64,000 nt of DNA, taken from IMG/VR virus record IMGVR_UViG_3300042301_001937, positions 6,575 to 70,574 of that record; one strand, 5' to 3'. The position numbers and the translations under genes were made by a program. Positions 27,857 to 58,452 of the stretch are shown in pieces; position 1 is the stretch's first letter, and the number at the start of each line of letters is the position of its first letter. This DNA is from a virus. The notes beneath the pieces are model-generated. The model saw only the letters and a program-made list of their open reading frames with translations, made no database searches and was not told where the DNA came from.

Positions 27857-29239
27857 TTATTTACCAGCTTTCTTTTTTAGTGTTCTTTTAGGAGAAGATT
27901 TTATCATACCTCCGTATTTATTTTTTTCAGTTCCTTTAACTCCTGCTTCTGTATCTTCTTTAACTCTTTTACCTTCTAACCTATTAGCATAAGCTTTCCA
28001 TGATTCTAATTGATTGTTATAAGCAGTTAAGTTATTGAAAATATTAGCAACAGATTTAGACGTATCAGCAGTTACAGCATTTTTAGCTCCTGTTTTCCAA
28101 AGATTGTAATTATACAAAGCTTCTCTGTTAGCTTGGTCTATAGCTGCATTTGCTTTTGATGTTTCATTAGCAGCAGCGGCCATTTGTTTATTATACTCAT
28201 TCATAGCTTGAGTATTTAAATTAGTTTCGTTTTGGAAGCTTTCACCTTTTTTCTGCATTTGTAAATTCCTCATTTTCTGGTAGTTACCAGCTTGAGTTGA
28301 ATAACTACCTCCACCTAATCTAATACCCATATTAGCTGCAGCAGTATCAGCATCAATTGCTTGACGTTGTGCAGACAAATCATATCTATTTGGAGATACA
28401 CCTGCAGTAAATCCAACAGCATCAAATGGTGTTGGAGCTTGTGTTTTATTAATACGATCTTGTTGAATTAAAGCTTGAGTTAAGTTAGTAGCTAAAGCAT
28501 AAGGAGAATAAGACATTTCATCATTAAGTTCAGCAATAGCATTTGAATTTTTTCTAGGTTGTACATAATCAAATTCAGGCATAGGTAAATCATCAGGAGG
28601 AACCATTCTACGTATAGGTTGTCCAATCATACTTTTAGGCTGAATTGTATTCATTACAACTGGAGCCATATTTCTAGAATAATTAGTTAACGTACTTTCT
28701 TGAGTTTCAGGAGCTTGCATTGTATTAACAGGAAAATAATTTGATTTACCCATTATACTTCTTGGTTTTAATGCTACAGATCCAGACATAGAATTTAATT
28801 CTTCTATTGGAGCATAATTAGGATCACCTTCCATTAATGCTGGTCTAGGTCTTACTAAATCTGCTAAACTAGCAACAGGTGCAGTTTGTCCAACATAAGG
28901 ATATGGACTTACTAATGGATCATTATTATACATTAATGATCTGTAAGGATCGTTGTTAGCAAACATAACTTCTTGATCATTAGTAATAGGTGAAACTGTA
29001 TTTCCGTTTGCATATTTTACCAATCCACCATTACGATGCATTGATAAATTCATATTGTTGCTAGGATATAATGCTCTAGGTACATTCATTTCTGCCCCAA
29101 ATTTAGGAAATTGAACTGCTCCACCTTCTGCCATTACTGACATAGGATCTGTACCAGCATTAATTGCCTGTCTTACAGACGATTCTAAATGTTTAGGTAC
29201 TTTAATTGTTTTACCTGTTTTTGAATGTTTTATTTTCAT
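27857..29239 (-). CDS. Putative virion cargo protein with xxGG motifs
   Basis: Pro/Met-rich N-half and Ala/Gln/Asn coiled C-half; MAEGG, HRNGG and NKYGG motifs. Confidence 0.65.
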   Translation of the reverse strand: MKIKHSKTGKTIKVPKHLESSVRQAINAGTDPMSVMAEGGAVQFPKFGAEMNVPRALYPSNNMNLSMHRNGGLVKYANGNTVSPITNDQEVMFANNDPYRSLMYNNDPLVSPYPYVGQTAPVASLADLVRPRPALMEGDPNYAPIEELNSMSGSVALKPRSIMGKSNYFPVNTMQAPETQESTLTNYSRNMAPVVMNTIQPKSMIGQPIRRMVPPDDLPMPEFDYVQPRKNSNAIAELNDEMSYSPYALATNLTQALIQQDRINKTQAPTPFDAVGFTAGVSPNRYDLSAQRQAIDADTAAANMGIRLGGGSYSTQAGNYQKMRNLQMQKKGESFQNETNLNTQAMNEYNKQMAAAANETSKANAAIDQANREALYNYNLWKTGAKNAVTADTSKSVANIFNNLTAYNNQLESWKAYANRLEGKRVKEDTEAGVKGTEKNKYGGMIKSSPKRTLKKKAGK

Positions 29240-29240
29240 G

Positions 29241-32200
29241 TTAGTCTTCGATTATTTCCCAAGAACCTATAGTACCACCTTGAGCAAACTGTTGTGCAAA
29301 GTTAGCATCTCTTTGTGATTTATACTCTTCTTGAGTGTTAAATAAATTATTTAATTGTTGATTGAACAACATTTCAGTATTAGCTTTAGCTACACTATCA
29401 GGTTTTCTATCTAAACTTCTAATTTTATTGTTAATCTTTTTAGCATGTTCAGCATAAGTTTTACCGTTTAATTTTAACCTGTCACTAAATACTTTAGTTC
29501 CTTCAGGTAAAGCTACTTCTATACCACCTTCATCGTGACTAGGACCATTAACTTGTCCTACTTCACCACCAGGTAACATAAACTGTTCGTTTAATTCTAA
29601 TTCTGCATTAGCACCTTCTTGATCAGTATTGATAGAACCACCATAAGGATATAATTGTGTACCCATTGTTTGAGTTAAACCAGCAGATTCATTAGCTTTT
29701 CCTCTAATACGTTTTAACGAAATTCTATTGTTAGATTCTACTTGAGCTTTTTTAGCTGCTTCTTCTTCTTCTGCAGAATTAAAATAACCCATAGCTCCTC
29801 CTATAACTGCACCAGCAAGAGCACCATAAGGTCCTAAAGCAGCACCAGTTGCAGCACCTTGAGCAGCACCTTTACCTATACCTGCCCAAGTATTAGTAGA
29901 TGAACCTACAACATTACCTTCATCATCAGTATATTCGTTATTTGGAACTTTACTTAAAGCTAATTCTGCAATTTGAGCACCAGCACCAATACCAGCTGAA
30001 GCTAAATTAGGATTTTTCCAACCTTTACCTTTACCTACTACTTCAAACATTCCATTACTAGTAGTTTGAGGATTTGTAGCATCACCAGCAGTAGTTACTG
30101 TACCAGCATCACCATATTTTTTTAAACTTCTACCTATAGTTCCACCCATAGCTTTAGTTGCTAAAGGTACTCTTCTTGTTAACATATCATTTGCTAATGT
30201 ACTAGCTACTGCAGAACTATCTGCTTTTTTAGGTAAAACTTTTACAGTTCCGTCTCTACCTGTTAATACGGTATTACCATTAGCGTCTATACTTTTAGTC
30301 CATGTTTGACCGTAACCATTAGGTTTAGAAGGATTTGCTATGTTGTCATTTTGAATTAAATATTGTGTTCTAGCACCTAAAATACCATCATCATATTTTC
30401 CTGCTTTTGTAGCTCCAAAAGTACTATTCATTTTATCTAACAATGCTTGTCCTTGAGGAGTACCTTGTAACATTTTTAATTGAGCACTTTGGAAATTTGC
30501 ATTATTATCTGTAGGTAAATTGTGTTGTTTAGCATAATCAGTTACTAATTTATCAGTTAAGTTAAATTGATTATTAGAAAATGCATTGCTTTGACCTGTT
30601 GGAGTTTTTTGCATTCCTCCTTGATATGTAGTTAATCCTGTTTTTGGAGTAGTAGTAGCTGGGGTTGTAACTTTTGCAGCTTCAATATCTTTAAGTGTTG
30701 GTCCACCCATATCATATTTCATCAAACCTCCTTCGGCAAAATCTAATCTACCGTAAGATTTATGTTTAGGTCCTCTTCCACAACCATTAGTGTTACCACC
30801 ATCTCCAATATTATATCTTACACCAGCATTAAAATAAGGTTGATCATTAACCATATCATATCCACCTTCACCTGAAAATCCAAATTTACTTCTATAGCTA
30901 GGTTTTAAATTAACGCCTAACCCAGCTCTGCCCATAACAGCTGAAGCATTTGGATCCATTAGATTTTTTTCTAAAGCAGCCATTTGATTAGGATCAGCAT
31001 AGTATTTACCTGCAGCTACACCATAAACATTTCCTTGAGGTCCTCTACGAGATCCAAAAGAACCTAAACTTGGAGTTATTTGACCTTCAAGAAAAGGCAT
31101 ATCTTTACCCATCATATTACCGTAACCTACACCTAACATTACAGGATTTAAATTTAAACCTGCACTTGCATTATAACCAAGACGGTTAACATCACCTTTT
31201 AAATAACCTCCACCAAAAACACCCCCTTTAAAACCAGGTCCTCCTTGACTATCGTAATAAGATTGTAATAGACCTGTAGATCCACCGTCAGGATATTGAA
31301 CCATTCCACCTACAGCAAATTTTTTCTTATAACTAACTTCAGCGTTAATACCTTGATTCATAGGATTATAGTTAAAGTTACCACTAAAGTTACTATTGTT
31401 TCTATCGTAGTTTAAATTTAATCCTACATTAGCATCAGGACGAATCATAGGAGCACCATTAAATCCATCAGTATTTAAAGGTAAAGTATGGTTAAATCCT
31501 AAGTTAGCATTTAAACCAGCATTAAAATTACCAAGTTTTCTTTGGTAATCAGCAGCTAATTTATAGTTAGACTCTACAGCTTTAGGATTAGGGTTTCTAG
31601 AATAGTTACCTGTTAAACCAAAAGTATTATTAGGTTCAACTTCACCACCTTCTGCATGTTTAAACTTAGCAGCATTTTTAGCAAAGTTAGCACGTTTAAC
31701 TATGGTAGAAGAATATTTACCTTTATTAGCCATAACATGACTAGCAGCTTCTTGCACACCCATACCATGAGATTTTGCCCAAGCTGTAAATTTACCTTTG
31801 TTTTCAGGTTTAATGTGGATACCACCGTATTTATATTCTTTAAAGTTTTTCATCATTGGAGCTATTTCTTTATAATGTTGTGCAAAATATTCTGCATCTT
31901 CAGGAGATTCAAACCTCATATCTTCTTTAGATGGAGTCATACCGTCTACTAAACGTAAATTAGCATCTCCAAAATCTTGTAATAATGGAATTGCATAATT
32001 ACCCATACTAGTCATATAATGAGTACCTATACCTTCTGGTGTCATTCCTGTTTTAGGATTAGCTGATACCATTCTTTTAGCAGCAGGATTACCAAAATGA
32101 GCATCTAAAGCCATACGTGCTTTCATCATTCCAGTTTTACCTCCATCGGCATATTGATCAAATTCATCATCAATTTCTCCACCTTCAGCCCAAGTCTTTC

Positions 32201-33077
32201 TAGCAAATGCTCTAAAGTAAGGATTGTTAGCTAAGTTATGTTTATGTCTAGCATAGAAAGCTTTCTTTCTTTCTGGATCATTAGGATGTTGACCTAAATT
32301 ACTATCACCAAAATATTTCTTAGTGCCATCAGGACCAATAACGACATGGGTTTTACCTTTACGTTCACTTGAACGTTTAACTACATAACCACCACCACCG
32401 TATTCATTTGAAGTTGAATCCATTTCATCATGCATATCATCTAAAATAGGTAATACTCTTCCTATAGGTACATTTTTTGTAGTTTTTAAACTTTTAATTC
32501 CTTGACCAAATTTACCTACCATTGGTAAACTACCTAATATTTCAATAGGTAAATTATTCCAATCTTTATTTTCAATAGTTTTAATTAAATCAGGATAATT
32601 TGTTGTTCCAGTAGGATCTAACCATGAGATTAAATTAGCAGAAATGTTTGAACCTCCATAAGGAGAATTTTTAACACTAGTATATGAATTTAAATTATCA
32701 GAATTAGGCCTAATAACTTCTGTATTTAATTTTATTTTTTTAGAGTTTTTAGGTGGTTTAGTGCTATAATTATTTTTGTCTAAAGATAAATCGTCAGTAA
32801 TATAACCTCCTTCTTCATGTTGAGCTTTAATCTTAGCTTCTTGTTCTAACATTTGTTTAGTAGGTTTCTTTCCAGAACCACGATTAGCACGAATATTATC
32901 CCAAAGACCACGTTGAGAATAACTACCATCTGCTCTTTTAATCATACCACCATTTTTGTATTCATGCAATGCATTGTAATCTTCTGGATGGGCAGCAGCA
33001 AAAGATTCTTCTGTTGGGTATTTTTTATGGAATTGATCCATAGTTAACCCGTGTTTTTTTAATATTTTATTTATCAT
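29241..33077 (-). CDS. Modular cargo polyprotein-like protein with ~14 [FYHW]xxGG motifs
   Basis: Motifs such as YKNGG, HEEGG, WAEGG, YADGG, YKYGG, HAEGG, FAVGG, YPDGG, FAEGG, YDMGG, YPYGG and FAQGG separate distinct modules. Also has a glycine zipper and a GPSHDEGG motif. Confidence 0.75.
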   Translation of the reverse strand: MINKILKKHGLTMDQFHKKYPTEESFAAAHPEDYNALHEYKNGGMIKRADGSYSQRGLWDNIRANRGSGKKPTKQMLEQEAKIKAQHEEGGYITDDLSLDKNNYSTKPPKNSKKIKLNTEVIRPNSDNLNSYTSVKNSPYGGSNISANLISWLDPTGTTNYPDLIKTIENKDWNNLPIEILGSLPMVGKFGQGIKSLKTTKNVPIGRVLPILDDMHDEMDSTSNEYGGGGYVVKRSSERKGKTHVVIGPDGTKKYFGDSNLGQHPNDPERKKAFYARHKHNLANNPYFRAFARKTWAEGGEIDDEFDQYADGGKTGMMKARMALDAHFGNPAAKRMVSANPKTGMTPEGIGTHYMTSMGNYAIPLLQDFGDANLRLVDGMTPSKEDMRFESPEDAEYFAQHYKEIAPMMKNFKEYKYGGIHIKPENKGKFTAWAKSHGMGVQEAASHVMANKGKYSSTIVKRANFAKNAAKFKHAEGGEVEPNNTFGLTGNYSRNPNPKAVESNYKLAADYQRKLGNFNAGLNANLGFNHTLPLNTDGFNGAPMIRPDANVGLNLNYDRNNSNFSGNFNYNPMNQGINAEVSYKKKFAVGGMVQYPDGGSTGLLQSYYDSQGGPGFKGGVFGGGYLKGDVNRLGYNASAGLNLNPVMLGVGYGNMMGKDMPFLEGQITPSLGSFGSRRGPQGNVYGVAAGKYYADPNQMAALEKNLMDPNASAVMGRAGLGVNLKPSYRSKFGFSGEGGYDMVNDQPYFNAGVRYNIGDGGNTNGCGRGPKHKSYGRLDFAEGGLMKYDMGGPTLKDIEAAKVTTPATTTPKTGLTTYQGGMQKTPTGQSNAFSNNQFNLTDKLVTDYAKQHNLPTDNNANFQSAQLKMLQGTPQGQALLDKMNSTFGATKAGKYDDGILGARTQYLIQNDNIANPSKPNGYGQTWTKSIDANGNTVLTGRDGTVKVLPKKADSSAVASTLANDMLTRRVPLATKAMGGTIGRSLKKYGDAGTVTTAGDATNPQTTSNGMFEVVGKGKGWKNPNLASAGIGAGAQIAELALSKVPNNEYTDDEGNVVGSSTNTWAGIGKGAAQGAATGAALGPYGALAGAVIGGAMGYFNSAEEEEAAKKAQVESNNRISLKRIRGKANESAGLTQTMGTQLYPYGGSINTDQEGANAELELNEQFMLPGGEVGQVNGPSHDEGGIEVALPEGTKVFSDRLKLNGKTYAEHAKKINNKIRSLDRKPDSVAKANTEMLFNQQLNNLFNTQEEYKSQRDANFAQQFAQGGTIGSWEIIED

Positions 33078-36000
33078 CTTTTACCTAATAAATTAGTTTG
33101 CATAGGTTCAGGTGTTATAAATACACTATCTCCTACATTTATGTTAGCGTCATTTTTATCTAACCAACCAGTTGGAATGTTAATACAGCCATAAGAAAAT
33201 AACTTTTGTTTAATTTTAGGGTCATTAAGAATAGCCATTCTTCTTGCATATTCTTCATCGTCATTTCCTTTACCCCAAGCATCATGTAAAGCTGTAGCTG
33301 TACCTGCTTCATTAGGTTGACCGTATATATAAGTTTTGTTACCGTAACCTGATTTTGGACTGTTTTTTCTTTCTTCCCAAATAGCATAAGAACCAGCTGG
33401 AGTAGTAGCTTTTAATTTATTACTTTTTGCCGATTTATGTGCATCAGCTGTATTAGGAAAATCACCTTTAGCCATACCTCTACCTGCAACAATTTGATCA
33501 ACTAATTTATGGTTGTTGTCAAATAAATATAACGTACTATTTTCTTTAGAATAAATACTATACTTACCTTTAAAACTTGCCCAAGCTGGATTTTTAGATT
33601 TTTCTTCTAATACTTGTAAAGCATCCGAAGGTAATTTAGAAGTAGATTTAGTAATATTAGTTACAGTACTTTTTTGCAAAGGTTTAACAGGTGTAGATTC
33701 TATTTTAGTTTCTACTTTATGTGCTGACTCTACAATAGGTTTAACTGTTTTAGGTAAAGTTCTTTTATCAACTGCAGATGGTGCCGCAATATGAGTACCA
33801 CTAGTAGTATTTAGTAAAGGTTGTTTTACAGGTTTTGCAGATGGAGCAGTTGGTATTGGAGCAGCAATAGTAGGTTCAACCATTTCTACAGTTGGATCAG
33901 GTAATCTACTTGGTGCCATTTCTGGAGCAACTTCTGTATTATTATCAGTACTATATAAAGGAACTTGGTTAGCCATAAATTGAGGAGGTCTTTGAGATAT
34001 CAAAGGTCTACCTTGTATTCCACCTTCATCAAATTTATTTAAATGAGTTAATAATTCTTCTTCATCATTAATAGATGTAAGATAATCACTAACTTCTTTA
34101 TTAAAGTTACCTAAATTTAAATTTTCATACAACTGCATAACATGATTAGATGTTGCTTTTTCTTTAGGTTTTAAATTTAATTGAGACCTTAAATTAGATA
34201 CAACTCCACCTTTAGCATAAGTATCTAAATTTGGATTGTTTGATATATAGCCTCCAAACGGTTTCATTACACCATATACAGTTTTTGGATCACCATAATA
34301 ACCAACTGCTCTACCTGAATTAACAAAATTTTCCCATGCTCCTTTTGAAGACGATGTTTGAGAATTAAAACCAGGTTTTACTCTACCTAAATTTAATTCT
34401 TTAAGATACTCATTTATAGATTCATAAGCTTTTGTACCTTTTCTTGGAGTTCTATCTGCAAATACAGTTCCTGTAGTATTAGTCATTTCTAAACCAGGTA
34501 TTTGTTGAAAATAACTTTGATTAGCAATATCTTCTACATCACCTTTCCATTGTCCAGGTTTTAATCTAATTCCCCAATTAGAAGTACCTGCATCTAATTT
34601 ATATTCAGGAGATAATTTTTGATATATAGTAGCTTTTAATACATCTTCAGCATGTTGTCTTTCATTAAATCTTGAATTATTTAAACTTATATCTCCAGTA
34701 GTAAATCTCCATTTACCGTCTTCTTGTTTTAATCCTAAATGATTATTAATATAATTATCATAATCATTATGATACATATCCCAATGTTGTTGTTGAGAAG
34801 GAGTTAAATTTCTTTTTAAAGTTTGTTCTGGTGTTTCAAAAATTAAGTAACCATGTTCGTTTGATCCTTTTTGTAATCCTTTTATTTTATATTGTACCCC
34901 TGATTTGTTATTTTTAGCTACTATTTCATTTAGTTTATCTACATTTTGATTAAATAAATCAATATATTCTTCATTAGTTAAATCAGTTAAATTATCTAAT
35001 TTATAAGAATTATTTGGAATGTAATTTACAATATCTCCGTTAGGTTTTAAAACTGTATTTTTAAATTCATTTTCTGACATTTTAGAAACAACATCTTTAT
35101 TTTTAGATAATGTTTTTTCTAATAGTTCTTCTTTAGTTAACCCTGATTTATTAATTAATGCAGGTTTTACTAAAGTTTCTGTTCTTGGAATTAAAACATT
35201 ATTATAACTAGGTTGATTTGCTATACGTGAACTTAAACCATTTAAAAAAGTTTGTATTCTACTAGAATTATCAATATTTCTAGGAATATTTTGAATAGCG
35301 TAATCATTAATATTTCTATTTACAAGTCTATTTCTAGCATAACTATTATCAGCAAGTCTATTTCTTGTATAATCAGAAGCATTTTGAAGGCTATTAAATG
35401 ATGATGGATAATCATCAATATTACCTACCCCATGTAATTTTAATAAATTTGCTTCTTCAAGATTTAATCTATCGTCCGAAGTATGGTAAATATTTCTTGC
35501 ACGTTCTAACGGTAAATGTTCAGGATAAGGTATTTGAACATCATCTGCAAAATCACTAATAAAATCTCTTACATTTTCAGTTCTTTGTCTTTTTAAAAGA
35601 TTTGGATTATACATATTAAGGTTATATATATCTGATCTAACGGGTATTTGAGTTAAAGCATTACCTGCACGTTCATAATTTTGTGGTAACCCTGCTCCAA
35701 ATTCTGTTAAAATTCTTTTTTCAGGACGAGTTAATAATCTATCAGAATTATGATAAATATTTCTAATTTCTTCTAAATTATTTGAAGCTTTATTTTTTAA
35801 TAAATTTGAAGCAGTTTTTTTAAATGCGGCTTTACCTAAAACTTTACCTACAGTTAAAGGTATATTTAATGCTTCTATAGCATCTAGTACTTCAAGACTT
35901 GCGTCTTGTAATCCACCTCTACCAGTAGTTTGACCAGTTTTAGAATTTATTTCATACTGCTCAGGAGACGTAGCAAAATTTCTACCTTGAAGAATATCTT

Positions 36001-36100
36001 TAGGTTTTTGAAAAGTAGGTGTATAATTAGTCCTTGTTGCATCTTGTGGTGCAGTAGTAGAAGGATATTTAGGACCTTTAAATTTCTCTAACCAAGCCAT
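33074..36100 (-). CDS. Modular virion protein with C-terminal L,D-transpeptidase (YkuD-like) domain
   Basis: SKENSTLYLFD...GRG...TPAGSY...ALH...SYGCINI catalytic His/Cys pattern; Pro/Thr linker; KPFGG, YAKGG and FDEGG motifs. Confidence 0.75.
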   Translation of the reverse strand: MAWLEKFKGPKYPSTTAPQDATRTNYTPTFQKPKDILQGRNFATSPEQYEINSKTGQTTGRGGLQDASLEVLDAIEALNIPLTVGKVLGKAAFKKTASNLLKNKASNNLEEIRNIYHNSDRLLTRPEKRILTEFGAGLPQNYERAGNALTQIPVRSDIYNLNMYNPNLLKRQRTENVRDFISDFADDVQIPYPEHLPLERARNIYHTSDDRLNLEEANLLKLHGVGNIDDYPSSFNSLQNASDYTRNRLADNSYARNRLVNRNINDYAIQNIPRNIDNSSRIQTFLNGLSSRIANQPSYNNVLIPRTETLVKPALINKSGLTKEELLEKTLSKNKDVVSKMSENEFKNTVLKPNGDIVNYIPNNSYKLDNLTDLTNEEYIDLFNQNVDKLNEIVAKNNKSGVQYKIKGLQKGSNEHGYLIFETPEQTLKRNLTPSQQQHWDMYHNDYDNYINNHLGLKQEDGKWRFTTGDISLNNSRFNERQHAEDVLKATIYQKLSPEYKLDAGTSNWGIRLKPGQWKGDVEDIANQSYFQQIPGLEMTNTTGTVFADRTPRKGTKAYESINEYLKELNLGRVKPGFNSQTSSSKGAWENFVNSGRAVGYYGDPKTVYGVMKPFGGYISNNPNLDTYAKGGVVSNLRSQLNLKPKEKATSNHVMQLYENLNLGNFNKEVSDYLTSINDEEELLTHLNKFDEGGIQGRPLISQRPPQFMANQVPLYSTDNNTEVAPEMAPSRLPDPTVEMVEPTIAAPIPTAPSAKPVKQPLLNTTSGTHIAAPSAVDKRTLPKTVKPIVESAHKVETKIESTPVKPLQKSTVTNITKSTSKLPSDALQVLEEKSKNPAWASFKGKYSIYSKENSTLYLFDNNHKLVDQIVAGRGMAKGDFPNTADAHKSAKSNKLKATTPAGSYAIWEERKNSPKSGYGNKTYIYGQPNEAGTATALHDAWGKGNDDEEYARRMAILNDPKIKQKLFSYGCINIPTGWLDKNDANINVGDSVFITPEPMQTNLLGKR

Positions 36101-36498
36101 TACTTCAAGTTTTTAAGTTTATATAAAGCAGCATATATTTCTTTTTGAATAGTATCAAGTTCATTTTGAACCCAACTATCTGGAAACATAGTATAGCTAT
36201 CTTCTACAAATTTAGCTAATTCTTCTAAAAAAGTCACTATGGTATTGTATTCACTTTGAGGAACAATGATTTCTACTATACCATATTTACCTTGCCATGA
36301 TTCAATTAATCCGTCAGTTAAATCCAATAATTCGTCATAAAGATCGTTTAAAACCTTATGTTCCCATCCAGATCCTAATTGGCCAGGACTTGTAGGACGT
36401 AAATGACGTGTATGTAAAATATCACGTGCTTGAAATAATTTGCCAAAAAACATGCTTGGGGTACTTTTTGGTGTTGATTTTTTTAATAGAATTGCCAT
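36100..36498 (-). CDS. Ferritin/Dps-like protein (DUF5856-like)
   Basis: HTRH...EHKVLNDLYDELLDLTDGLIESWQGKYG...QNELD...YKLKNLK four-helix di-iron-type pattern. Confidence 0.75.
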   Translation of the reverse strand: MAILLKKSTPKSTPSMFFGKLFQARDILHTRHLRPTSPGQLGSGWEHKVLNDLYDELLDLTDGLIESWQGKYGIVEIIVPQSEYNTIVTFLEELAKFVEDSYTMFPDSWVQNELDTIQKEIYAALYKLKNLK

Positions 36499-39400
36499 TA
36501 TCTTATATTTTTAATTTTAATGCCTGAAATATCTAATAGATTTAATTTAGGTTTTTTAGTTACAATGCTAGCTGCTGTTATAGTAGTATTAGTACCTAAA
36601 CTTGCAGAAGTAAAAGGTAAAGTATTATAAAATTTCATACCGTAACTACTACCTCCTCCATAAATTACAACACCATAAATTACAAAATCTTGTCCTAATA
36701 AATCACAACTAAATTTTAAAACGTCTCCTATATTTATTGTTTCAGCTATATTTAAAACTATATCTGAAGTAGAACTAATGTTATCTTGAGCTACATCATT
36801 TGGTACAATATAAGAAGAAGACATTATAGTTAATGGTGTTTCTTTAGACAAAACATATTTAAATCTAATTCCAAACCAGTAATCTACCAGACGTTTTAAT
36901 TTAGTCCAATGTTTATTAACAACTATATTAGCATCTATAAACGGTCTGTACCAAACATTATTATTGACCACTTTAGTAGAATTGTTTAAAGTATAATCTC
37001 TAAAATCGTTATTAGACCAATAACCTTCTACGTTTCTAGAATTACTTTGATTAACGATATTTGAGATTTTACTTATTTGATAACTATCATAAGCTTGTAA
37101 AGAATCAAATGTTTGTAGCACTTCTTCATTACTTGCAATGTCTAAAGCTTTAGTTTTCCATTGTACAGACATTAATCTGCTAACTTCTTTACCGTTTATA
37201 ATAGGTTCAATAGTTAACGTGCCTCTAGAATCAGTAATGTTTTCTAATGCTTTGCTACCACCGTAACTTAATAAATAAGGATACTCTTTCTTGTTTTGTT
37301 CAAAAGCTACTTTATTGTGTTGAGACCAAAACTTCAATTGATTAGAAAAATAGGTATCTTGAGAATTTTCATACCAGCTTACAAAACCATCATATTCAGG
37401 ATAATAAGCTAAAGTAAATCTATCTTCTGTAAAATATGTAGGGTTGTTAAAATATATTTCACTTCCATAACATAAAGTAGTACCGTCAGTATAAAATTGT
37501 ACGATATCTGTACCTGCACCTGCAGCTTTAGCATATAGTTTTCCTTCAAACATAAACAAAGCTCCTACACCCCAATCATTTTCAAAATTATCAATATCAA
37601 AATAACCATAGAAATTTGTAGTAAATGTCGATGTTACAGTAATATCTTTTTTAGTCAACAAAAACCTTTTGTATAAAGGATCAAATCCAGATATGTAACC
37701 ATAAAATATAGAATCTTGACCATCAAAATAAAAACCATCGTAATTATATATTTTAAGCCAATTGTCTGAATTAGTAGGATTAGCTGTATTGGCATTTACA
37801 AGTGATAAATAAATAGCATTATTATAGACAACAGAAGAACCTTGAATATAAGTAGATCCTGAAACATAATTACTGGTTAAAGTAAAAATCCGATCTCTTA
37901 AATAATTTTCAAAATTTAATTTAATGTTAGTTAAAGAAAATATTTTAACACCATTATTCGAAATAGCTGAAACTTTTTCTCCGTAAAGTATAATACTTGC
38001 TGAATTTACGTCAACATAAAATACCCCGTATTGGTTGGTAATAGAAGAAAACTGATGTTTTAATCCTGCATAACCAGTATCAGTTAAAATAACATCTTTA
38101 GCTGGATAGTCAAATAAATCTCCTGCACCTAAATAAGCTTCAGAAGAATCTGTTTTCATCCTATCTTTAGTAGCTGTTCTTTTTAAAGTATGGCTATGTT
38201 GAATAACTAAAGCGTTACCAAAATTAGTAATGTTATTAATTTCACCTTTAGATTTTTCTACATCCGTATATTCATTAGGTAAGAAAATCCTAAGATTATC
38301 TTGTACAGATTCTGGATTGTCTACTGCAGATCTAGCTATTCTGGTAGGAAAACTGTCTATTTTAGTAGATAAAAATGAATGAATAATAGGAGCACGTAAA
38401 TCGTTAACTGAAGTGTAATCTCTATTATAACCGTAGTAGTTAGCAAAACCGTTAGGTAATAAAGGTACTCTTAAAACTGAAACATAATCAGATTTAGGAT
38501 AGTAAATATCGTAAGTACCTGTTCCTTGATGTTTATAATTAACATTTGAAACTGTTTCTAAATATGCTGAATACAAAGTAATAAACTGCATAGAAGTATA
38601 AATAGTACTAGGTGTAAAATATCCTTGATTATAAGCATATACTAAATCACTAGCAGATCTGTAAGAATCTAATGATTGAAATGTATCTCCACCATAAAAA
38701 TGACTTGATGGATCAAATCCTGTACTAAAAGCAGATGCGTCTAATGTTTCAATGTATCCAGTATCTACTAATTCTTGAGTATAATAACTAGGATACATAT
38801 TTGGTTTTAATGAACAAATATTACCTTTTAAAATAGAAGAATCATAAGGATCTTCTGAAGGAAGTGTAAAATTTAATTGTTGATTACCAGTATAACAATT
38901 TGCTTCTATGTTATTTGCCGTTTCTATACTTACACAAGTTTCTCCAAGATAATGAGTTGTATCATAAGTAAAATCTAATAAACCTGCATTAGGGGGATGA
39001 TGTCCACTACCTGTAGTCCAAGTAGAATCTGGATTATATATAGGTAAGCTTTCAGTTAATTTAGCATTAGTAAATCTTCTAATGTAAGAAGATTTTTTCT
39101 GATCAGCTACTGATTCTTCAAAACAATAAAATCTAGCATCTGCTGCTCTAGGATCATTACCTATATTATTATTCCAAGCTGAAGTTCCTACAGATCCCCA
39201 ATAATCTAATTGTGTAGATACATTTTTAAATGCTTTAAAATGTGTAGCTGAAGATACATCTAAATTAGAAGAAGAAATATCAAAAGGACTCATTCTAAAT
39301 CTATTTAACCGTCTATACATAAATCTACTAACTGAAGGAGAGTAATCAGAATAAAACTCCATTGAATTATTAAACGATAAACTAAATACACCTTCTTCAA

Positions 39401-41588
39401 GTCTATCTTGTCCATCATAAGTTAAATAAAAATCATGTATTATTAATGATTGTCCTAAAACACTCCTATTTAAATTAGTTCTTTTAGCGTAATATATTTT
39501 AATTTTATCTATTTCATTTTCAAGTTCTGCAGGTAAAATTATATTAGAAATCTTTAATCCTAAATTAGCTGTTTGATAAATTTGAGCTGATTGCTGAATG
39601 TTTTCAGGACCAGGCATTTTATGATGTCTAATTTTTTGATTTTTAAAAGAAGCTGTATTACTACCACTTGAATTTTTTACATCCCAATCAGTAGTGTTGT
39701 CATAAGTTTCATCAGCATTTTCCCAAAACCCTAATTTTAAAGGAAGTGATAAAAGATTACCTTCTCCACAATCAAAAGCATGAAATACTTTAGAGTCAGA
39801 ATTAATACTATATATTTCTCCAGCAGGTGAAATATCAGTAGAAGTTAATCCGTTAGTTACGTAATCATCTATAATAGGAGGTACGTAAAAAATACCAGGT
39901 AAATTATAACCTGATGAAATATTCCATAAAGTTATAACTCCTAAATTAGCACCATTTACATATTTAACTGCTTCTACAGTATGAGTGTATGTAAAAAGTG
40001 GGGCTGTACCTGTTATATCAGTACTTAACACTTTTACGTAATAATACGATTCTGTACCTGCTAGATCATATTGTTTTAATAAAGCAATATCATTAGTAGC
40101 TAAACCACTACCATTAGCTGCATTTACGTTATAAATTAATTGCAACGTAGTAGTATTAAAGGTGCCCCCTTCATTAGAAATATCAGTTAAACTACTAGAA
40201 AATCCTTCATCTTCATTTAATCTGTAAGTAGCTTGAATTGTATCAAGTCTTTCATCTTCATCAAACCTAAGTCTTATTCCAGCTGAATCACGTGCTATTA
40301 CTCCACCTGTAATATCAGGTGCAGAAGCAGTTCCATCATAACTAACTCTTTCAGCTTGACGGCCTGGAATATGAAATGCTTCACTTTCCGTACCATCTTT
40401 ATAAACTAATGTAGCATAAAGAGCATATACCTCATCATATTGAAAACAACGTTTAGTAAAGATTGCAGTTTCTGAGTGAAATGAAGTATTAAAAACACTT
40501 CTATCTTGAATTTCAATATAAGGTTCTACTTGAATATTGTTAATCCAAGGTTGAAGATTAGTTTTTAATTGTTCTTTTAAATTACCAATATATAATCTAT
40601 TGTCTAATTGAGTAATAGTTTTAGCTACCCAAGTAATTTTATTAATTAAAATATCTGTACTTGTTGTAGCTGCATTATCTAAAGATATAATTTCTCTAGT
40701 AAAAGTTCCAGTTGTATTAGGAAAATACCCTAAATCATAAGCAGCTAAAACTTGATTAATTTTAGTTATAACGTATAATTTTACATTAGGAAAATTAATG
40801 TCTGAACTAAAACTAATAGTAAAACTTTTACCTGTTAAGGTATTTGGTGGGCATCCATCATAGTTTTCAAGAGGAAATGGAGTTAACTCATTAACTATAG
40901 AAATAGGGTTAGATGGAAATGAAAGGTTAGTTTCATTAAAATTCTCATCTGCATAAGATGCTAATACGTAGTAAACTCCTGATTTTAAGTTACCTCCATT
41001 TTGAACTGAATCTAAATTAATCTTAAATTGTTCAAAAGGTTTTAAAACGTATAATTTATTAAACTCATCAATGTCTGTACATTGAAAGTTAAGATCTACA
41101 ACAGGTTCTGGAATATCAACATTTATATATCTTAATGGGTTTCTAAAATCTACCCAATAAACGGAAAATGTATTATCCGAGTTAATTTTATAACTACCTT
41201 GTATTTGTGTATTAAGATTCCAATTAAAATCAGTAACTCCTACTTTGTCTCTAATTAATACTCTGTAAGAATTGTCTGATGATATTACTCCAATTTCTCC
41301 TCTACAAAATCTACCTACAAGTTGTGTAGTTGGATCATTAGGGTCATAAAATTTAGATTCCCCTTCAATTACAGAAAATAATACCACAGAACCATTGCTA
41401 AGTGGAATTTTACCAATGCATGTAGCACCTGGAGTTATTAACGTAGGATAATTAAAAAGTGGATAATTACCGTCTTCATTAGTAATACTTCCAACTTCTG
41501 AATTAATGTTTACATTAATATTCAACCTTGATGTTTTATCAGGTTGATTTTGTGGATCACCATCTGTATTTAATAAAAAAGGCTGCAT
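36498..41588 (-). CDS. Tail stabilisation/muzzle protein
   Basis: 1696 aa, beta-rich; VYWVDFRNPLRYINV, GGNLKSGVY, NRLYIGN and FHIPGR motifs of crAss-like tail stabilisation proteins; positioned after the tail ring gene. Confidence 0.8.
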   Translation of the reverse strand: MQPFLLNTDGDPQNQPDKTSRLNINVNINSEVGSITNEDGNYPLFNYPTLITPGATCIGKIPLSNGSVVLFSVIEGESKFYDPNDPTTQLVGRFCRGEIGVISSDNSYRVLIRDKVGVTDFNWNLNTQIQGSYKINSDNTFSVYWVDFRNPLRYINVDIPEPVVDLNFQCTDIDEFNKLYVLKPFEQFKINLDSVQNGGNLKSGVYYVLASYADENFNETNLSFPSNPISIVNELTPFPLENYDGCPPNTLTGKSFTISFSSDINFPNVKLYVITKINQVLAAYDLGYFPNTTGTFTREIISLDNAATTSTDILINKITWVAKTITQLDNRLYIGNLKEQLKTNLQPWINNIQVEPYIEIQDRSVFNTSFHSETAIFTKRCFQYDEVYALYATLVYKDGTESEAFHIPGRQAERVSYDGTASAPDITGGVIARDSAGIRLRFDEDERLDTIQATYRLNEDEGFSSSLTDISNEGGTFNTTTLQLIYNVNAANGSGLATNDIALLKQYDLAGTESYYYVKVLSTDITGTAPLFTYTHTVEAVKYVNGANLGVITLWNISSGYNLPGIFYVPPIIDDYVTNGLTSTDISPAGEIYSINSDSKVFHAFDCGEGNLLSLPLKLGFWENADETYDNTTDWDVKNSSGSNTASFKNQKIRHHKMPGPENIQQSAQIYQTANLGLKISNIILPAELENEIDKIKIYYAKRTNLNRSVLGQSLIIHDFYLTYDGQDRLEEGVFSLSFNNSMEFYSDYSPSVSRFMYRRLNRFRMSPFDISSSNLDVSSATHFKAFKNVSTQLDYWGSVGTSAWNNNIGNDPRAADARFYCFEESVADQKKSSYIRRFTNAKLTESLPIYNPDSTWTTGSGHHPPNAGLLDFTYDTTHYLGETCVSIETANNIEANCYTGNQQLNFTLPSEDPYDSSILKGNICSLKPNMYPSYYTQELVDTGYIETLDASAFSTGFDPSSHFYGGDTFQSLDSYRSASDLVYAYNQGYFTPSTIYTSMQFITLYSAYLETVSNVNYKHQGTGTYDIYYPKSDYVSVLRVPLLPNGFANYYGYNRDYTSVNDLRAPIIHSFLSTKIDSFPTRIARSAVDNPESVQDNLRIFLPNEYTDVEKSKGEINNITNFGNALVIQHSHTLKRTATKDRMKTDSSEAYLGAGDLFDYPAKDVILTDTGYAGLKHQFSSITNQYGVFYVDVNSASIILYGEKVSAISNNGVKIFSLTNIKLNFENYLRDRIFTLTSNYVSGSTYIQGSSVVYNNAIYLSLVNANTANPTNSDNWLKIYNYDGFYFDGQDSIFYGYISGFDPLYKRFLLTKKDITVTSTFTTNFYGYFDIDNFENDWGVGALFMFEGKLYAKAAGAGTDIVQFYTDGTTLCYGSEIYFNNPTYFTEDRFTLAYYPEYDGFVSWYENSQDTYFSNQLKFWSQHNKVAFEQNKKEYPYLLSYGGSKALENITDSRGTLTIEPIINGKEVSRLMSVQWKTKALDIASNEEVLQTFDSLQAYDSYQISKISNIVNQSNSRNVEGYWSNNDFRDYTLNNSTKVVNNNVWYRPFIDANIVVNKHWTKLKRLVDYWFGIRFKYVLSKETPLTIMSSSYIVPNDVAQDNISSTSDIVLNIAETINIGDVLKFSCDLLGQDFVIYGVVIYGGGSSYGMKFYNTLPFTSASLGTNTTITAASIVTKKPKLNLLDISGIKIKNIR

Positions 41589-51340: not shown

Positions 51341-52789
51341 CTACAAACCAGCAGTACAAGCTAAGTCGATAGAAGTGTTAAATCTTCTAAGAACAACTTG
51401 TCCAGCTTTCAAGAAGTGTACTGAACTACCATCTTTATCAGTTGCAATGATATCGTTAGCAGTAAAGTCAGTTCCTGATGGTGCTTCGTTAATACCTTTT
51501 ACCATACCACGTAACATTGCACGGCCTTTCTTAGAAACCATAGACAAGTTACTCATACCATCATAAGTAGATGTATCTACAAATGCCATACGGAAAGATT
51601 CCAATGGAAGGTTAGGGTAGTTAGGGTGTTTAGGAGAAGCCAAAGCTTGAGGACCGTTATCAAAAATAGAAGCAGTTTTGATAATCACCTTGTAACCATC
51701 AACGTGTTGATAAGTATCAAAGTATCCACCTAATCCCAAATTGTATCCATCACCAGTAACGAATTTGTTATCTGATAATTTGATGTACTGTTTAGAACTA
51801 AGTTCATTTTTCATAGCTTGGTCAAACATTAAACGACCACCAATACCTGTGAACAAAGTGATAACTTTATTTTCAGCATCTGACATACCATAAAATACGT
51901 CACGAATGGTTTGATCAATTTTATCAGCTGTTAATGCACCATAGGTATCTTTGTTAGTGATTTGTTCGAACAAACCAGATCCACGTACAATTGGATTACC
52001 TTGTTCATCACGTTCGTTGATAACACCATAAGCATCACGATTTGATTTAGAATACCAGTAGTTAGTTTCACATTCTACACGGAAACTTAAATTGTGTTGG
52101 TATTCTTCGTAAGGCCAATACATTTCACGGTTACCTCCACCTTTGGTGTCTAACTGTACAGTTTTAGCTTTACGATATTTGATGTTACCTTCGTAAGCAT
52201 AACCTTTACGAATAGTACCTACGTCACCACGAACTTTAACTGGAGCAGTTGAAGTAGACAAGCTACCAAAAGATCCAAATGAAGCTACCGAGTTCCAACC
52301 CAATGCATACAATGAACCAGCAGCAACTTCACTTGCAGGTAAAAATTCAGATGCATTTTTAGCAACTAATCTTACACTGTAAGCCCATTGACCGTTAGTT
52401 TGAATACGGTTAGTAATACGTAATTGGTAACCTTGAGGTGACAAGATAGTGTAACCTACAGGGAAAATACCTTCAGCAAAATACAAAGTAGCTTCTGAGT
52501 AACCAATACCGAAGTTAGCTGCATAAGAACCTGAAGGAGGTGATTGAAGAGATACTGCCTTGAACAAACGTCCAATTACATCATACTCGTATTCGTCACC
52601 ATCAATTTCTTGAATAGCGTTCATACCTTCTGAAAGGTACATTAAAGGAAAACGAGAAGATTCATTACCCATCATACGAGTAAGAACTGGTGCGATTTTG
52701 TCAGGCTGTGCATTAATCAGACGAGAGAAAGAAGCATCATTACTTTTCATGCTTTCATTCCACACTTGATCCATTAAAAATTGTGCCAT
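51341..52789 (-). CDS. Major capsid protein (HK97 fold, crAss-type)
   Basis: 482 aa downstream of portal and scaffold; GSGLFEQI, LFTGIGG..MFD and HP..P.LPLES motifs; codon usage of a highly expressed gene (frequent CGT/TTC/TAC); strong terminator. Confidence 0.88.
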   Translation of the reverse strand: MAQFLMDQVWNESMKSNDASFSRLINAQPDKIAPVLTRMMGNESSRFPLMYLSEGMNAIQEIDGDEYEYDVIGRLFKAVSLQSPPSGSYAANFGIGYSEATLYFAEGIFPVGYTILSPQGYQLRITNRIQTNGQWAYSVRLVAKNASEFLPASEVAAGSLYALGWNSVASFGSFGSLSTSTAPVKVRGDVGTIRKGYAYEGNIKYRKAKTVQLDTKGGGNREMYWPYEEYQHNLSFRVECETNYWYSKSNRDAYGVINERDEQGNPIVRGSGLFEQITNKDTYGALTADKIDQTIRDVFYGMSDAENKVITLFTGIGGRLMFDQAMKNELSSKQYIKLSDNKFVTGDGYNLGLGGYFDTYQHVDGYKVIIKTASIFDNGPQALASPKHPNYPNLPLESFRMAFVDTSTYDGMSNLSMVSKKGRAMLRGMVKGINEAPSGTDFTANDIIATDKDGSSVHFLKAGQVVLRRFNTSIDLACTAGL

Positions 52790-56371: not shown

Positions 56372-56379
56372 CAAATTTA
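56372..56379 (-). promoter_or_regulatory. Bacteroidota -7 element (TAAATTTG)
   Basis: TAnnTTTG overlapping the TerL stop codon, 18 nt upstream of the portal ATG. Confidence 0.55.
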
Positions 56380-58452
56380 ATGGAACAATTTGTTAATCCC
56401 AAACTTTGTGTCCATCCGAGTAAAGAACTCCTCATCATAAGGTGAGGTTCTTTTTTCTTCTGGGGGTGGCTTTAAAAGAAGTTCTTTCTTATAAAGCATA
56501 GCTACAAACATAGCTGAAACCCTATCAAAGTTTCCATCATAACTAAATTTGATCAATTCCTCTAACAAAGGTACGGAATAAATTTTATGTAAATTCAATA
56601 ATTGTTCTCCGTCTTCTGTTACTTCCCTTTTTTGTAACAACCAGTCTCTGAGATAACTAGCTGCTTGTTTTTTAGTTTCTATACTAGACATAGATACACC
56701 GTAGCTTCTACCTAACTTTCTTTTAGGAGCATCATTCATATCGTACACCGTTACCTCTTCTTCTAATCGATGGAATAGTTTATGTATTCTAGCATAAGCT
56801 AAAATGTCTCCGTCCCTATCATTTTCAAATACAATCTTAGCATTATAATAATGAGCTAACAAAAATAAATTCTTGTTGTAGTCATCTTGAAGATTAGGTC
56901 TGCCTACATATTCAGCTACAATCATGTCGTAAGGCTTTGAAAAGTTATTAACACGTTTAAATACAAAAGTAGCACCTAAAGAGTCACGTTTAGTTATTTT
57001 CTTATCTTTACCTTTATCTATAGCATAAGGGTCAGTAGCTATAAAGTACAGATTATCAGGAGCTACGTCATTAATCTGAAAGGGTTGCTGATAAATAATA
57101 ACAGCACCTTCTCCGTCAACATCTGGTTTTAAAGGAAAGTTATTAATAGGTTTAACGTCATCTCTAGGTTCAAATTTTACCTTACCGTGACTATCTGTAA
57201 ATAAGATTCCTGGTGTACCCAAATACTGTAAGGCTTTTTGAGATCTAATGTTATTGATCTGTTGGTTTAACTCAGCTTTAGGAAATATATTAGTACCTAT
57301 CTTAATAAAAGCTTCTGATGGTTTACGTGGAAATTCAGCTAAATAAGCATCAACCTCATTTGGATTTTTAGATTTACGTTTTAAATTCTCTACTTGTTGT
57401 TCAATAAATAACTCAGCTTCTGTTGTAGCAGAAGTTCCACCTCCAAGTCCAGTTTCTTTAATAAAACCACCCTTAGAATAATAGTCAGGTAAGAAGTAAC
57501 CCATTTGAGTATGCTCCATACCGTCATCAAATATATTCTGATACGGTCTAAAGTTATAAGTTTCAGGGTCGTAAAACATTCTTTCAAAGTCTACTTGCCC
57601 TCCAGTAAAGTCACCACCAGTTCCATATACAAATATCTGACCTGTAACGTCCACACTTTCTTCTACTGTAGCTCTAGTTACACGGTAAGTAGCTAATAAG
57701 TTGTTAAAAGAACCTGCTTCTTCAAATAGAATTACGTTAGCATCTTTACCCCTTACTACGTCTGGGTTGTTTAAAGCAGTAAATCCCATGATCCTAGATT
57801 TAAAACCTTGGACTATCTCTCTACCATCAGGAGTTTTTTCTATAAACGAAGCCATTACCTCTTCGTATCTTCTATTAGTCTGCTGTCTCTGTTTACCAAA
57901 GTCAGTATATTTCAATAGAAAATCCAAGTAATCTACAGCCATACCCATAGTTTCTTTAGTATATTTCTCTTGTTCAGATAATATTAAAGATGTTGATTTC
58001 CTAACAAAGGTATAGTTATAAGCAGCCTTAGCAGCATTCTTAAAAGAATAACCTCTACGTCTTGGCTTAACTATAATCATGTGTTGACCTTCTTCTCTAG
58101 CTTTTTCACATTCCGTAAAATAATACCAATCAGAATCCCAGAAAGCTGGAAACGTAGTTTTCTTTTCAACCTTTCGTTTCTTAGATATATTCTCTTTTAA
58201 AGCTACAGCTTCTTTTAATTGTATTTGGCAAAAGTTTAAATAAAAGTAATGTTCTCCTGTGATTCTTACACCACCAACAGAGTAACCGTTTTTACAATAA
58301 TATTCTTGTTCATCCCAATATTCTTTCCATTCTAAACTTCCTCTAGGAGCATTAATATAACCGTCAAATCCACGTAAAGCATTGATTTGGAACCGTTTAG
58401 ATTCAGGACTAAACTCTTCTGTGTTTATATGTGATATATCTAAAATAAACAT
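56377..58452 (-). CDS. terL: Terminase large subunit
   Basis: ITGEHYFYLNF, Walker A KPRRRGYS, Walker B ILFEEAG, YGTGG, and nuclease motifs ATDPY and GNFDRVSA. Confidence 0.93.
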   Translation of the reverse strand: MFILDISHINTEEFSPESKRFQINALRGFDGYINAPRGSLEWKEYWDEQEYYCKNGYSVGGVRITGEHYFYLNFCQIQLKEAVALKENISKKRKVEKKTTFPAFWDSDWYYFTECEKAREEGQHMIIVKPRRRGYSFKNAAKAAYNYTFVRKSTSLILSEQEKYTKETMGMAVDYLDFLLKYTDFGKQRQQTNRRYEEVMASFIEKTPDGREIVQGFKSRIMGFTALNNPDVVRGKDANVILFEEAGSFNNLLATYRVTRATVEESVDVTGQIFVYGTGGDFTGGQVDFERMFYDPETYNFRPYQNIFDDGMEHTQMGYFLPDYYSKGGFIKETGLGGGTSATTEAELFIEQQVENLKRKSKNPNEVDAYLAEFPRKPSEAFIKIGTNIFPKAELNQQINNIRSQKALQYLGTPGILFTDSHGKVKFEPRDDVKPINNFPLKPDVDGEGAVIIYQQPFQINDVAPDNLYFIATDPYAIDKGKDKKITKRDSLGATFVFKRVNNFSKPYDMIVAEYVGRPNLQDDYNKNLFLLAHYYNAKIVFENDRDGDILAYARIHKLFHRLEEEVTVYDMNDAPKRKLGRSYGVSMSSIETKKQAASYLRDWLLQKREVTEDGEQLLNLHKIYSVPLLEELIKFSYDGNFDRVSAMFVAMLYKKELLLKPPPEEKRTSPYDEEFFTRMDTKFGINKLFH

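Follow-up and report, generated by a model that had tools for sequence, protein, structure and literature searches.

A recurring Gly-Gly connector motif marks apparent module edges in the predicted ejected cargo proteins of a crassvirus

No phages are more abundant in the human gut than the crassviruses. Pieces of one of their cargo proteins, gp45 of crAss001 (PDB 7QOG and others), are resolved by cryo-electron microscopy (cryo-EM), and the authors of the crAss001 structural paper view gp45 as one chain spanning the tail and the capsid; the accessible text of a 2026 paper on phage N4 (PMC13434306) describes crassvirus ejection proteins as still structurally unresolved. Here we analyse a 64-kb stretch of DNA (the window) from a 70.6-kb IMG/VR virus record that is ~80% complete (IMGVR_UViG_3300042301_001937, positions 6,575 to 70,574). 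Three adjoining genes of the window encode the proteins P0003, P0001 and P0002, in which a short motif, [FYHW]xxGG, recurs; comparison with homologues shows that it marks the edges of predicted modules, and that modules have been gained or lost, exchanged, shuffled in order and parted into separate genes there. The genes, with the two landmarks that place them, are as follows.

33074..36100, minus strand: cargo gene A, P0003, 1008 amino acids (aa)
29241..33077, minus strand: cargo gene B, P0001, 1278 aa, C1-type, 14 strict motifs
27857..29239, minus strand: cargo gene C, P0002, 460 aa; counterpart of the C-terminal part of C1-type chains that relatives encode as one fused protein
36498-41588, minus strand: muzzle protein gene, just upstream of the cargo genes (PF25731 crAss_MUZ, E 5e-18)
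51341-52789, minus strand: major capsid protein gene (Pfam Crass_capsid, E 2e-58)

Pfam matches and gene order identify the minus strand of the window as a crassvirus virion module. The genes run in the order muzzle, a 132-aa DUF5856 gene, P0003, P0001, P0002, a 660-aa gene, and the genes for a 3725-aa and a 1721-aa protein; no Pfam family was found in the last two, which, judged by size and position, we take to be virion RNA-polymerase proteins. The order muzzle, cargo, RNA polymerase is common to the window, crAss001 (where cargo 1 precedes cargo 2), cr108_1 and 'Rudgehvirus jaberico', and the P0001 gene lies, as a C1 gene does, downstream of the muzzle gene and ahead of those for the virion RNA polymerase. 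In its C-terminal ~300 residues P0001 stays below the Pfam gathering score for crAss_CARG1 (PF25725; cut-off 27 bits, with 15.9 reached by the whole of P0001 and 19.2 by the segment), a family that is carried by P0001 homologues such as P0063 and P0069. The same C-terminal domain aligns to residues 447-574 of crAss001 gp45, the portal-binding region, with the terminal FAxGG included (BLASTP, E 0.002). Because of the crAss001-like gene order, the sub-threshold CARG1 match and the gp45 alignment, P0001, P0002 and P0003 are shown, by position and weak homology, to be probable ejected cargo genes of a crassvirus, encoding C1-type 'polyvalent' proteins. The view of the first-pass annotation that these are cargo genes thus finds backing in gene order and in the likeness to CARG1 and gp45.

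The resemblance to gp45 extends to its layout, as gp45 also lies downstream of the muzzle gene, has a Gly-rich hydrophobic segment, and carries a portal-binding-type domain that is followed by an FAxGG motif. FAEGG 260 of gp45 stands just after the first of its two cryo-EM-resolved pieces, the tail-bound helix (214-245), and FAYGG 559 just after the second, the portal-bound domain (425-552). The crAss001 protein, however, has few modules and three motifs against 1.45 expected (with M added to the class), whereas its counterpart in the window is expanded with the small modules M1, M2 and M3 (described below) and other beads, is split into P0001 and P0002, and has a third modular gene, P0003, before it. 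Residues ~398-429 of gp45 (L001 5988-8516) form a remnant that resembles the second half of M3 and finishes in F-G-G where the cryo-EM-resolved portal-binding domain starts. A broader comparison is with the polyvalent proteins of Iyer, Burroughs, Anand, de Souza and Aravind (2017, PMC5512222), in which, according to the accessible text, each virion-delivered chain bears many unrelated domains in mosaic arrangements. The same is found here, with several unrelated domains per chain and mosaic architectures among relatives, and P0001 homologues carry ART-PolyVal, SLT, LysM and YkuD domains. The zincin-like metallopeptidase that is frequent, though not obligatory, in polyvalent proteins has no counterpart in that P0001, P0002 and P0003 contain no HExxH. 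The words 'glycine' and 'linker' do not occur in the accessible text of PMC5512222, and thus no shared connector motif is described in that text. The ejection proteins of podoviruses (T7 gp14/15/16, P22 gp7/16/20 and N4 gp51/gp52) are, in the accessible parts of PMC10172136 and PMC13434306, stored in the head or tail and exit before the DNA, passing at least partly unfolded through a narrow channel, and they include membrane- and peptidoglycan-active parts.

We defined the strict motif as [FYHW]xxGG, calculated expected numbers from composition, and made 10,000 global and 10,000 local (60-aa) shuffles. P0001 contains 14 strict motifs against 2.03 expected (Poisson p 3.5e-8), a number reached by none of the shuffles of either kind, and the motif is therefore commoner than a Gly-rich composition predicts. 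GG itself is hardly in excess, its 27 sites being close to the 20 expected; what is enriched is the preceding context, with F, Y, H or W at -3 in 14 of the 27 sites (background 0.10, binomial p 7e-8). It could be argued that the motif is an artefact of composition, or a DNA repeat that drives recombination, since Gly makes up 12.5% of P0001 and GGTGGW is common to all motifs. The shuffles refute such an explanation, and the near-normal GG total also speaks against it. Those six nucleotides are, moreover, all the DNA that the motifs share, while their Gly codons follow gene-wide usage, which places the constraint at the protein level, and the motif is kept in proteins of only 30-60% identity. 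We regard this explanation as having almost no chance of being correct.

Among the 50 of 55 open reading frames (ORFs) scanned in the window, the five left out being overlapping or antisense, P0002 has one strict site (p ~0.12) and P0003 two (p ~0.05-0.07), neither significant alone. The remaining 47 ORFs hold seven motifs altogether, with none in the 3725-aa protein (0.99 expected) and one in the 1721-aa protein (0.65 expected). Outside the cargo genes a 691-aa ORF (56377-58452, minus strand) contains YSVGG, YGTGG and YSKGG, three strict sites against 0.44 expected; it has no Pfam match, and its motifs may be chance or an unrelated feature of its fold. The fourteen sites that the first-pass annotation listed in the 1278-aa protein all lie where it placed them, and thirteen of them fit its [F/Y/H/W] class; KAMGG, however, does not, and HDEGG (residue 1181) was overlooked. 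Its total of about twenty is reduced to 17 strict sites, as MAEGG, NKYGG and KPFGG fall outside the class and the two neighbours contribute only three, which are not significant. The close pairing that it reported is seen in WAEGG/YADGG, FAVGG/YPDGG, FAEGG/YDMGG and KPFGG/YAKGG. The modules and connectors of P0001 on which the following analysis turns are these.

32805..32960, minus strand: module M1, residues 40-91, YKNGG ... HEEGG, basic, isoelectric point (pI) 9.9
32178..32402, minus strand: module M2, residues 226-300, YGGGG ... WAEGG, predicted local distance difference test (pLDDT) >90, pI 10.2
32139..32192, minus strand: paired connector WAEGG-(8 aa, acidic)-YADGG, residues 296-313
31644..31835, minus strand: module M3, residues 415-478, YKYGG ... 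HAEGG, pLDDT 82-97, pI 10.2
31281..31319, minus strand: paired connector FAVGG-MVQ-YPDGG, residues 587-599, where orthologues have an extra ~95-aa module
30702..30740, minus strand: paired connector FAEGG-LMK-YDMGG, residues 780-792
30141..30155, minus strand: KAMGG, residue 975, a loose motif outside the strict class, away from any predicted order/disorder border

A search of 5.8 billion proteins gave 143 matches, of which 120 make up the listed homologues. These include one near-identical protein and three collinear orthologues; most of the others cover 4-25% of the length at 40-90% identity. When P0001 was compared with 119 homologues by BLASTP, 322 high-scoring segment pairs (HSPs) fell into the blocks M1 (~40-93), M2 (~220-305), M3 (~414-480) and a C-terminal block (~918-1270), the order and combination of which vary among homologues. 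Almost half of the 596 internal HSP ends (49.2%) lie at most six residues from a motif GG, compared with 13.4% for random positions (0/5000 permutations); the proportions for unique end positions are 30.2% and 13.7% (0/5000), and for GGs that lack the aromatic residue only 9.3%. It should be emphasized, however, that a shared motif tends to pull local alignments up to itself, an effect of which insertions and deletions between orthologues are free. P0001, P0005, P0006 and P0007, which share 68-83% identity in their best local alignments, display 12 internal gaps of at least 15 columns, and 14 of the 24 gap edges lie within three columns of a motif GG, against a null mean of 2.4 (0/2000 reach 14). 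In P0007 the first motif is fused directly to the GG that opens M3, with ~375 residues gone, while P0006 has YADGG fused directly to M3, whose end is in turn fused to the GG that follows FAVGG. P0005 and P0006 have an additional 65-aa module between two motifs, and P0005, P0006 and P0007 have, between two GGs, a ~95-aa module that is missing from P0001.

These comparisons show the cargo proteins to be built as beads on a string, in which independently folding and often basic mini-domains of ~25-180 aa are joined by spacers of 2-12 aa. A bead starts with Y/F-x-x-G-G and two hydrophobic residues, and ends with F/H/W/M-A/E-x-G-G. The proposal of the first-pass annotation that the motif stands at module borders is borne out by the agreement of alignment ends, indel edges and predicted order/disorder borders, with HDEGG 1181 (and MLPGG 1167) as the exception, and its cassette idea by the gain, loss, swapping, reordering and splitting of modules at the motif in close orthologues and in hundreds of phage proteins.

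The exchange appears to reach the borders of the genes themselves. Residues 248-456 of P0002 are 43-46% identical to the C-terminal ends of P0017, P0021, P0024 and P0048 (E 1e-34 to 1e-44), which are single chains of 748-808 aa with a CARG1-like domain, three of them also with M1 and M3. The point at which P0001 stops and P0002 starts corresponds, in the fused chains, to a place between an F-x-K-G-G that follows the CARG1-like domain and an M-x-x-G-G ~10-20 residues further on. Thus, P0001 and P0002 are the apparent outcome of gene fission or fusion at a connector, with P0002 having gained its own 34-aa N-terminal piece that ends in MAEGG. BLASTP of P0002 against crAss001 gp45, 'R. jaberico' gene49 and cr108_1 gp056 was not significant (best E 0.3-1.8), and the fission claim therefore rests on the closer fused relatives. 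The corresponding features of P0002 are given here.

29024..29038, minus strand: HRNGG, P0002 residue 68, counterpart of the [M/H]xxGG that opens the C-terminal part of fused relatives
27872..28498, minus strand: P0002 domain 248-456, also found at the C-terminal ends of fused C1-type chains in relatives; YGG and a basic tail come after it

The C1-type chains end alike, in Y/K-x-G-G, a hydrophobic residue and a Lys/Arg-rich tail of 7-16 residues; this tail is shared by P0002 (27857-27919), 'R. jaberico' gene49, P0017, P0021 and P0024, and resembles a conserved C-terminal signal. P0003 also has parts in circulation, as its N-terminal domain (84-613) matches P0071 and P0081, with the match stopping at KPFGG, and its C-terminal domain recurs within P0033, P0044, P0062 and P0133. 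Since gene borders follow connectors, and the domains of P0002 and P0003 are shared in this way, the three genes can be viewed as one variably fused or split cargo 'super-gene'.

The motif extends well beyond the window. P0001 and its 120 listed homologues contain 1185 motifs against 146 expected, an enrichment that is partly circular as the homologue sets were gathered via shared modules, which does not apply to the orthologue indel test or to the control of 558 ORFs described below. The extended consensus in the homologues is [Y/F/M/H]-[A/E/K]-x-G-G-[Y/M/E/T/I]-[I/V/M], with A (31%), E (15%) and K (13%) leading at position -2. M3 alone was found, at E ≤ 0.001, in 2496 clusters (50% identity) within 1.84 billion representatives, at any position in proteins of 87 to ~1900 aa; neither Pfam nor PHROGs contains it at the thresholds used. 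Over 250 copies, taken from 235 proteins, M3 has an N-terminal motif that is Y (73%) or F (13%) with glycines conserved at 93% and 96%, and the C-terminal motif is H (79%) or K (19%) with glycines at 99% and 98%. Further motifs stand just outside M3 on both sides in most copies (G 59-76%, with Y, F or W before), so that the module usually stands between two pairs of motifs, the members of each pair being parted by a short spacer. Distances of 5-10 residues account for 299 of 1977 inter-motif intervals, and the spacers of the 398 distinct paired connectors are enriched in M, Y, V, I and E.

At 80 IMG/VR loci with M3, motifs number 394 in the 80 ORFs that contain the module, where 56.7 are expected (5.85 per 1000 aa), compared with 291 against 187.9 expected (0.78 per 1000 aa) in the 558 other ORFs, only seven of which are individually enriched, all on the same strand and no more than ~2 kb from the M3 match. 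Among small M3 proteins (87-200 aa), 17 of 18 keep the C-terminal GG and 14 of 18 the N-terminal GG. Such proteins might be pieces of genes with recoded stops; in the 11 small M3 ORFs of these loci the in-frame stretch beyond the stops is at most 33 aa, save in three that are cut by the locus end, one of which (L081) has 495 open in-frame codons just upstream. Among GenBank phages M3 occurs only in Crassvirales, in 15 records that represent eight phages, the cultured 'R. jaberico' included, whose gene49 (757 aa, adjoining a muzzle-type gene; L085 8758-11031) has seven motifs against 0.26 expected. In five of eight gene49 motifs R stands at -2 (HRLGG, FRLGG, MRLGG, HRNGG, YRCGG), where the window phage has A; a flavour of this kind, if peculiar to a lineage, would suggest that the motif is read by something equally lineage-specific. 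The -2 residue is overdispersed per protein (chi2/df 1.3-2.1), a result that is confounded by relatedness and module content and was not used. The M3 genes of cr118_1, cr10_1, cr50_1 and cr127_1 are annotated 'transcriptional regulator' (three) or 'putative endolysin/lysozyme' (one), names that probably reflect one module of a mosaic cargo protein. Neither megablast of 10 kb against GenBank phages nor tblastn of M2 against phages gave a match. A search of viral and metagenome contigs for related loci found none with P0001 and two with P0006, L086, which was compared at the protein level only, and L087; in their DNA the orthologues have diverged too far for a junction to be located more precisely than the GG codons. 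In the latter, a metagenome relative, the CARG1-like domain continues in another frame (~3150-3170), through a frameshift or a sequencing error. Literature searches on crassvirus cargo, proteolytic processing and double-glycine in phage virions returned no description of this motif, and both the connector and its role as a breakpoint for module exchange appear new to the literature searched. Podovirus ejection proteins are not known to carry a repeated connector motif or to form a mosaic of beads.

What the connector does may be approached through structure prediction. The AlphaFold2 model of P0001 residues 30-500, built from 50 aligned sequences, has confident islands at M2 (229-299, pLDDT >90) and M3 (419-473, 82-97), a weaker one at M1 (44-88, 56-76), and values below 50 between them. 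All seven motif GGs of this model lie within four residues of a pLDDT-50 border; each of the three modules finishes in a helix that leads up to its C-terminal motif, and in M1 and M2 a strand begins right after the N-terminal GG. In the model of residues 780-1278, FAQGG stands exactly at the end of the last helix, with YDMGG and YPYGG near order/disorder borders. HDEGG 1181 is, however, inside the beta-rich CARG1-like fold, where it belongs to a block that Flavobacterium phages and phrog_15413 also conserve; MLPGG 1167, a looser motif, likewise lies inside the fold of the C-terminal domain. Not every motif, therefore, is a connector.

29274..29678, minus strand: CARG1-like domain of P0001, residues 1134-1268, with YPYGG at the start, HDEGG inside the fold and FAQGG at the end

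Searches of known folds gave no match for the modules. Foldseek of the first model against the PDB gave no match at E ≤ 0.001, the best (polo-box domains, E ~0.9) being noise, and the P0001 sequence matched no PDB chain at E ≤ 1. Against Pfam at E ≤ 10, eight P0001 segments yielded nothing beyond the sub-threshold CARG1 and, for M2, a weak match to DUF5754 (E 0.49). In the ESM Atlas, M3 (0.83-0.85) and M2 (0.82-0.91) match only unnamed viral clusters of 73-129 aa, which are leads only.

The reading that we tentatively favour, while stopping a little short of calling it probable, is that the connector is a standard capped hinge between the autonomous mini-domains of a polyvalent ejection protein, and stays in the chain. 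The C-terminal version of the motif would cap the last helix of a bead, the N-terminal version would start its first strand, and the two glycines would provide a hinge that decouples the folding of adjacent beads. The sequence hydrophobic-A-E-G-G-hydrophobic after a helix resembles a glycine helix C-cap. A chain of such beads could be stored densely and unfold bead by bead through the portal and tail, as proposed for crAss001 gp45. As the same frame-neutral connector stands at every junction, almost any connector-to-connector recombination would give a viable protein, and we propose that this explains the fast mosaic evolution of these genes. The hinge needs no extra enzyme and fits the thread-through-tail model for gp45. 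The architecture is apparent in the homologues; that the chain stays uncut is what we infer.

Several observations, however, weigh against a plain hinge. The mean pLDDT of both models is low (59 and 53), and the aromatic residue of the N-terminal motif lies in a low-confidence part, with no packing role seen. The four M3 glycines are as conserved as core residues, more than such a hinge needs, and the -3 residue is Y or H in 73-79% of the copies. The same motif stands, often doubled, at both ends of unrelated modules, and a helix cap cannot therefore explain the N-terminal copies. Its retention in the small M3 proteins would likewise be more than a linker between neighbours needs. Conservation, two-ended placement and retention in small proteins together argue that the motif may be recognized by something.

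One candidate for such recognition is a protease, of phage or host, that would cut after or at GG in the head. The products would be small basic proteins associated with the DNA, together with membrane-active and wall-active pieces, with the short spacers released. The precedents are adenain and the African swine fever virus (ASFV) protease pS273R, where, as here, Gly-Gly stands at the junctions, and small basic products of the window proteins would be much like the core proteins that associate with DNA. Both glycines are nearly invariant and lie in segments predicted to be flexible and accessible, which would suit a protease and fits a hinge equally well. Also consistent with cutting are the motif at both ends of modules and its persistence in small module proteins; the charge of the modules (M1 +4, M2 +9 and M3 +8, pI ~10) and the acidic WAEGG-YADGG spacer; and the fact that the parts flanking one connector are here separate gene products, P0001 and P0002. 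A cut at FAEGG 260 of gp45 would part its tail-bound from its portal-bound piece. Processing of polyvalent proteins by their metallopeptidase domains is proposed in the accessible text of Iyer et al. 2017 (PMC5512222), and three proteins of the window contain HExxH motifs.

The differences from the precedents are nevertheless considerable. Adenain and pS273R are clan CE cysteine proteases of viruses other than tailed phages with bacterial hosts, cutting here is hypothetical, and no clan CE protease was found in the 70.6-kb record, which is ~80% complete. Indeed Peptidase_C39 (PF03412), C48 (PF02902), C5 adenain (PF00770) and M23 all have no match in the record; for PF00770 and PF02902 there were zero matches at E ≤ 1, which leaves room for a divergent or unknown protease. 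No peptidase family appears in the precomputed Pfam matches of the 120 listed homologues or in the three cargo proteins. The hydrophobic residue in (M/I/L)-x-G-G of adenain is at P4, whereas here it occupies P5 (-3 from the first G), and HDEGG 1181 lies within a fold. The C39 double-glycine leaders differ as well, with a single N-terminal leader and a C39 peptidase, in contrast with 14 internal repeats and zero PF03412 matches here. The three HExxH proteins that the first-pass annotation named as candidate proteases do exist, but none was found in every motif-bearing phage. They were detected in 10, 13 and 26 of 44 other motif-bearing virus records, and in 6, 5 and 11 of the 20 that are at least 90% complete, counts that are weak evidence because single-sequence searches miss divergent relatives. 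In crAss001, gels in the accessible part of the literature show the RNA-polymerase cargo near full size, the structural paper does not contain the strings 'cleav', 'protease' or 'proteoly', and the accessible crassvirus literature describes no cleavage of these cargo proteins. Thus, the idea of the first-pass annotation that the proteins are a polyprotein cut at GG gains nothing from these results, and with no known Gly-Gly protease family in the record we consider it unlikely, although serious enough to be kept in view. One of the HExxH proteins, a 122-aa ORF (58990-59358, minus strand) upstream of the head genes, is weakly SprT-like (E 0.009), and its homologues are clear (E ≤ 1e-7) in six of 44 M3-bearing records and weaker in four more.

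Recognition could also take the form of binding. As a multivalent tag or 'sticker', the aromatic-GG motifs would bind a common partner (the capsid interior, the portal or tail lumen, or DNA) or each other, so that cargo is concentrated in the procapsid cargo zone and the number of tags sets avidity. The 10-18 copies per protein lie in disordered segments, the spacers of the 398 unique connectors are enriched in M, Y, V and I, and the motif is confined to the cargo genes that adjoin the muzzle gene; the gp45 motifs, moreover, are not resolved by cryo-EM while the adjoining pieces are. The RNA-polymerase cargo, however, is also packaged, and yet has no motif in the 3725-aa protein and one in the 1721-aa protein, and gp45 binds the portal by a folded domain and the tail by a helix rather than by the motif. 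With no partner identified, the capsid-targeting tag put forward in the first-pass annotation receives no support from any result here, and we judge it improbable. Such probability as remains beyond hinge, protease and tag belongs to mixtures of them or to something not thought of.

The rest of the cargo genes offers further features that would suit ejected proteins.

29778..29894, minus strand: Gly/Ala-rich hydrophobic stretch of P0001, residues 1062-1100 (phrog_6056 'internal virion protein', E 2e-4; weak Gly-zipper_YMGG)
34019..34219, minus strand: P0003 mini-module between YAKGG (residue 628) and FDEGG (residue 690)
33104..33688, minus strand: P0003 C-terminal YkuD-like (L,D-transpeptidase fold) domain, residues 805-999

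The Gly/Ala-rich stretch of P0001 is likely a membrane segment or glycine zipper. Residues 480-779 (30741-31640, minus strand) form a long Asn/Gly-rich region with alternating hydrophobics that ends in K-K-K-F just before a connector; it has no Pfam match at E ≤ 10, and may be beta-rich and membrane-inserting. P0003 consists of the N-terminal domain 84-613, the KPFGG/YAKGG pair, a mini-module of 58 aa that closes with FDEGG, then a Pro-rich linker and the C-terminal YkuD-like domain. The last of these matches the Pfam profile at positions 5-145 of 146 (E 0.0014; 19.7 bits, below the cut-off of 23.4), matches the YkuD part of P0085 by BLAST, and contains S-Y-G-C-I-N. A peptidoglycan-acting head of this kind on an ejected P0003 would suit the breaching of the wall.

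As far as sequence evidence can tell, the pattern is a real and widespread design rule of crassvirus cargo proteins. The rule divides large 'hypothetical' cargo proteins into units, accounts for their mosaic evolution, and defines many uncharacterised mini-domain families, of which M3 is an example. Should the connectors prove to be protease sites, this would represent double-glycine polyprotein maturation in tailed phages, by a protease that is possibly an HExxH domain or of the host, and recombination of a module into the space between two connectors would suffice to add a new effector. If the connectors tolerate insertion as natural variation suggests, they would provide natural sites for the addition of cargo in engineered phages of laboratory strains.

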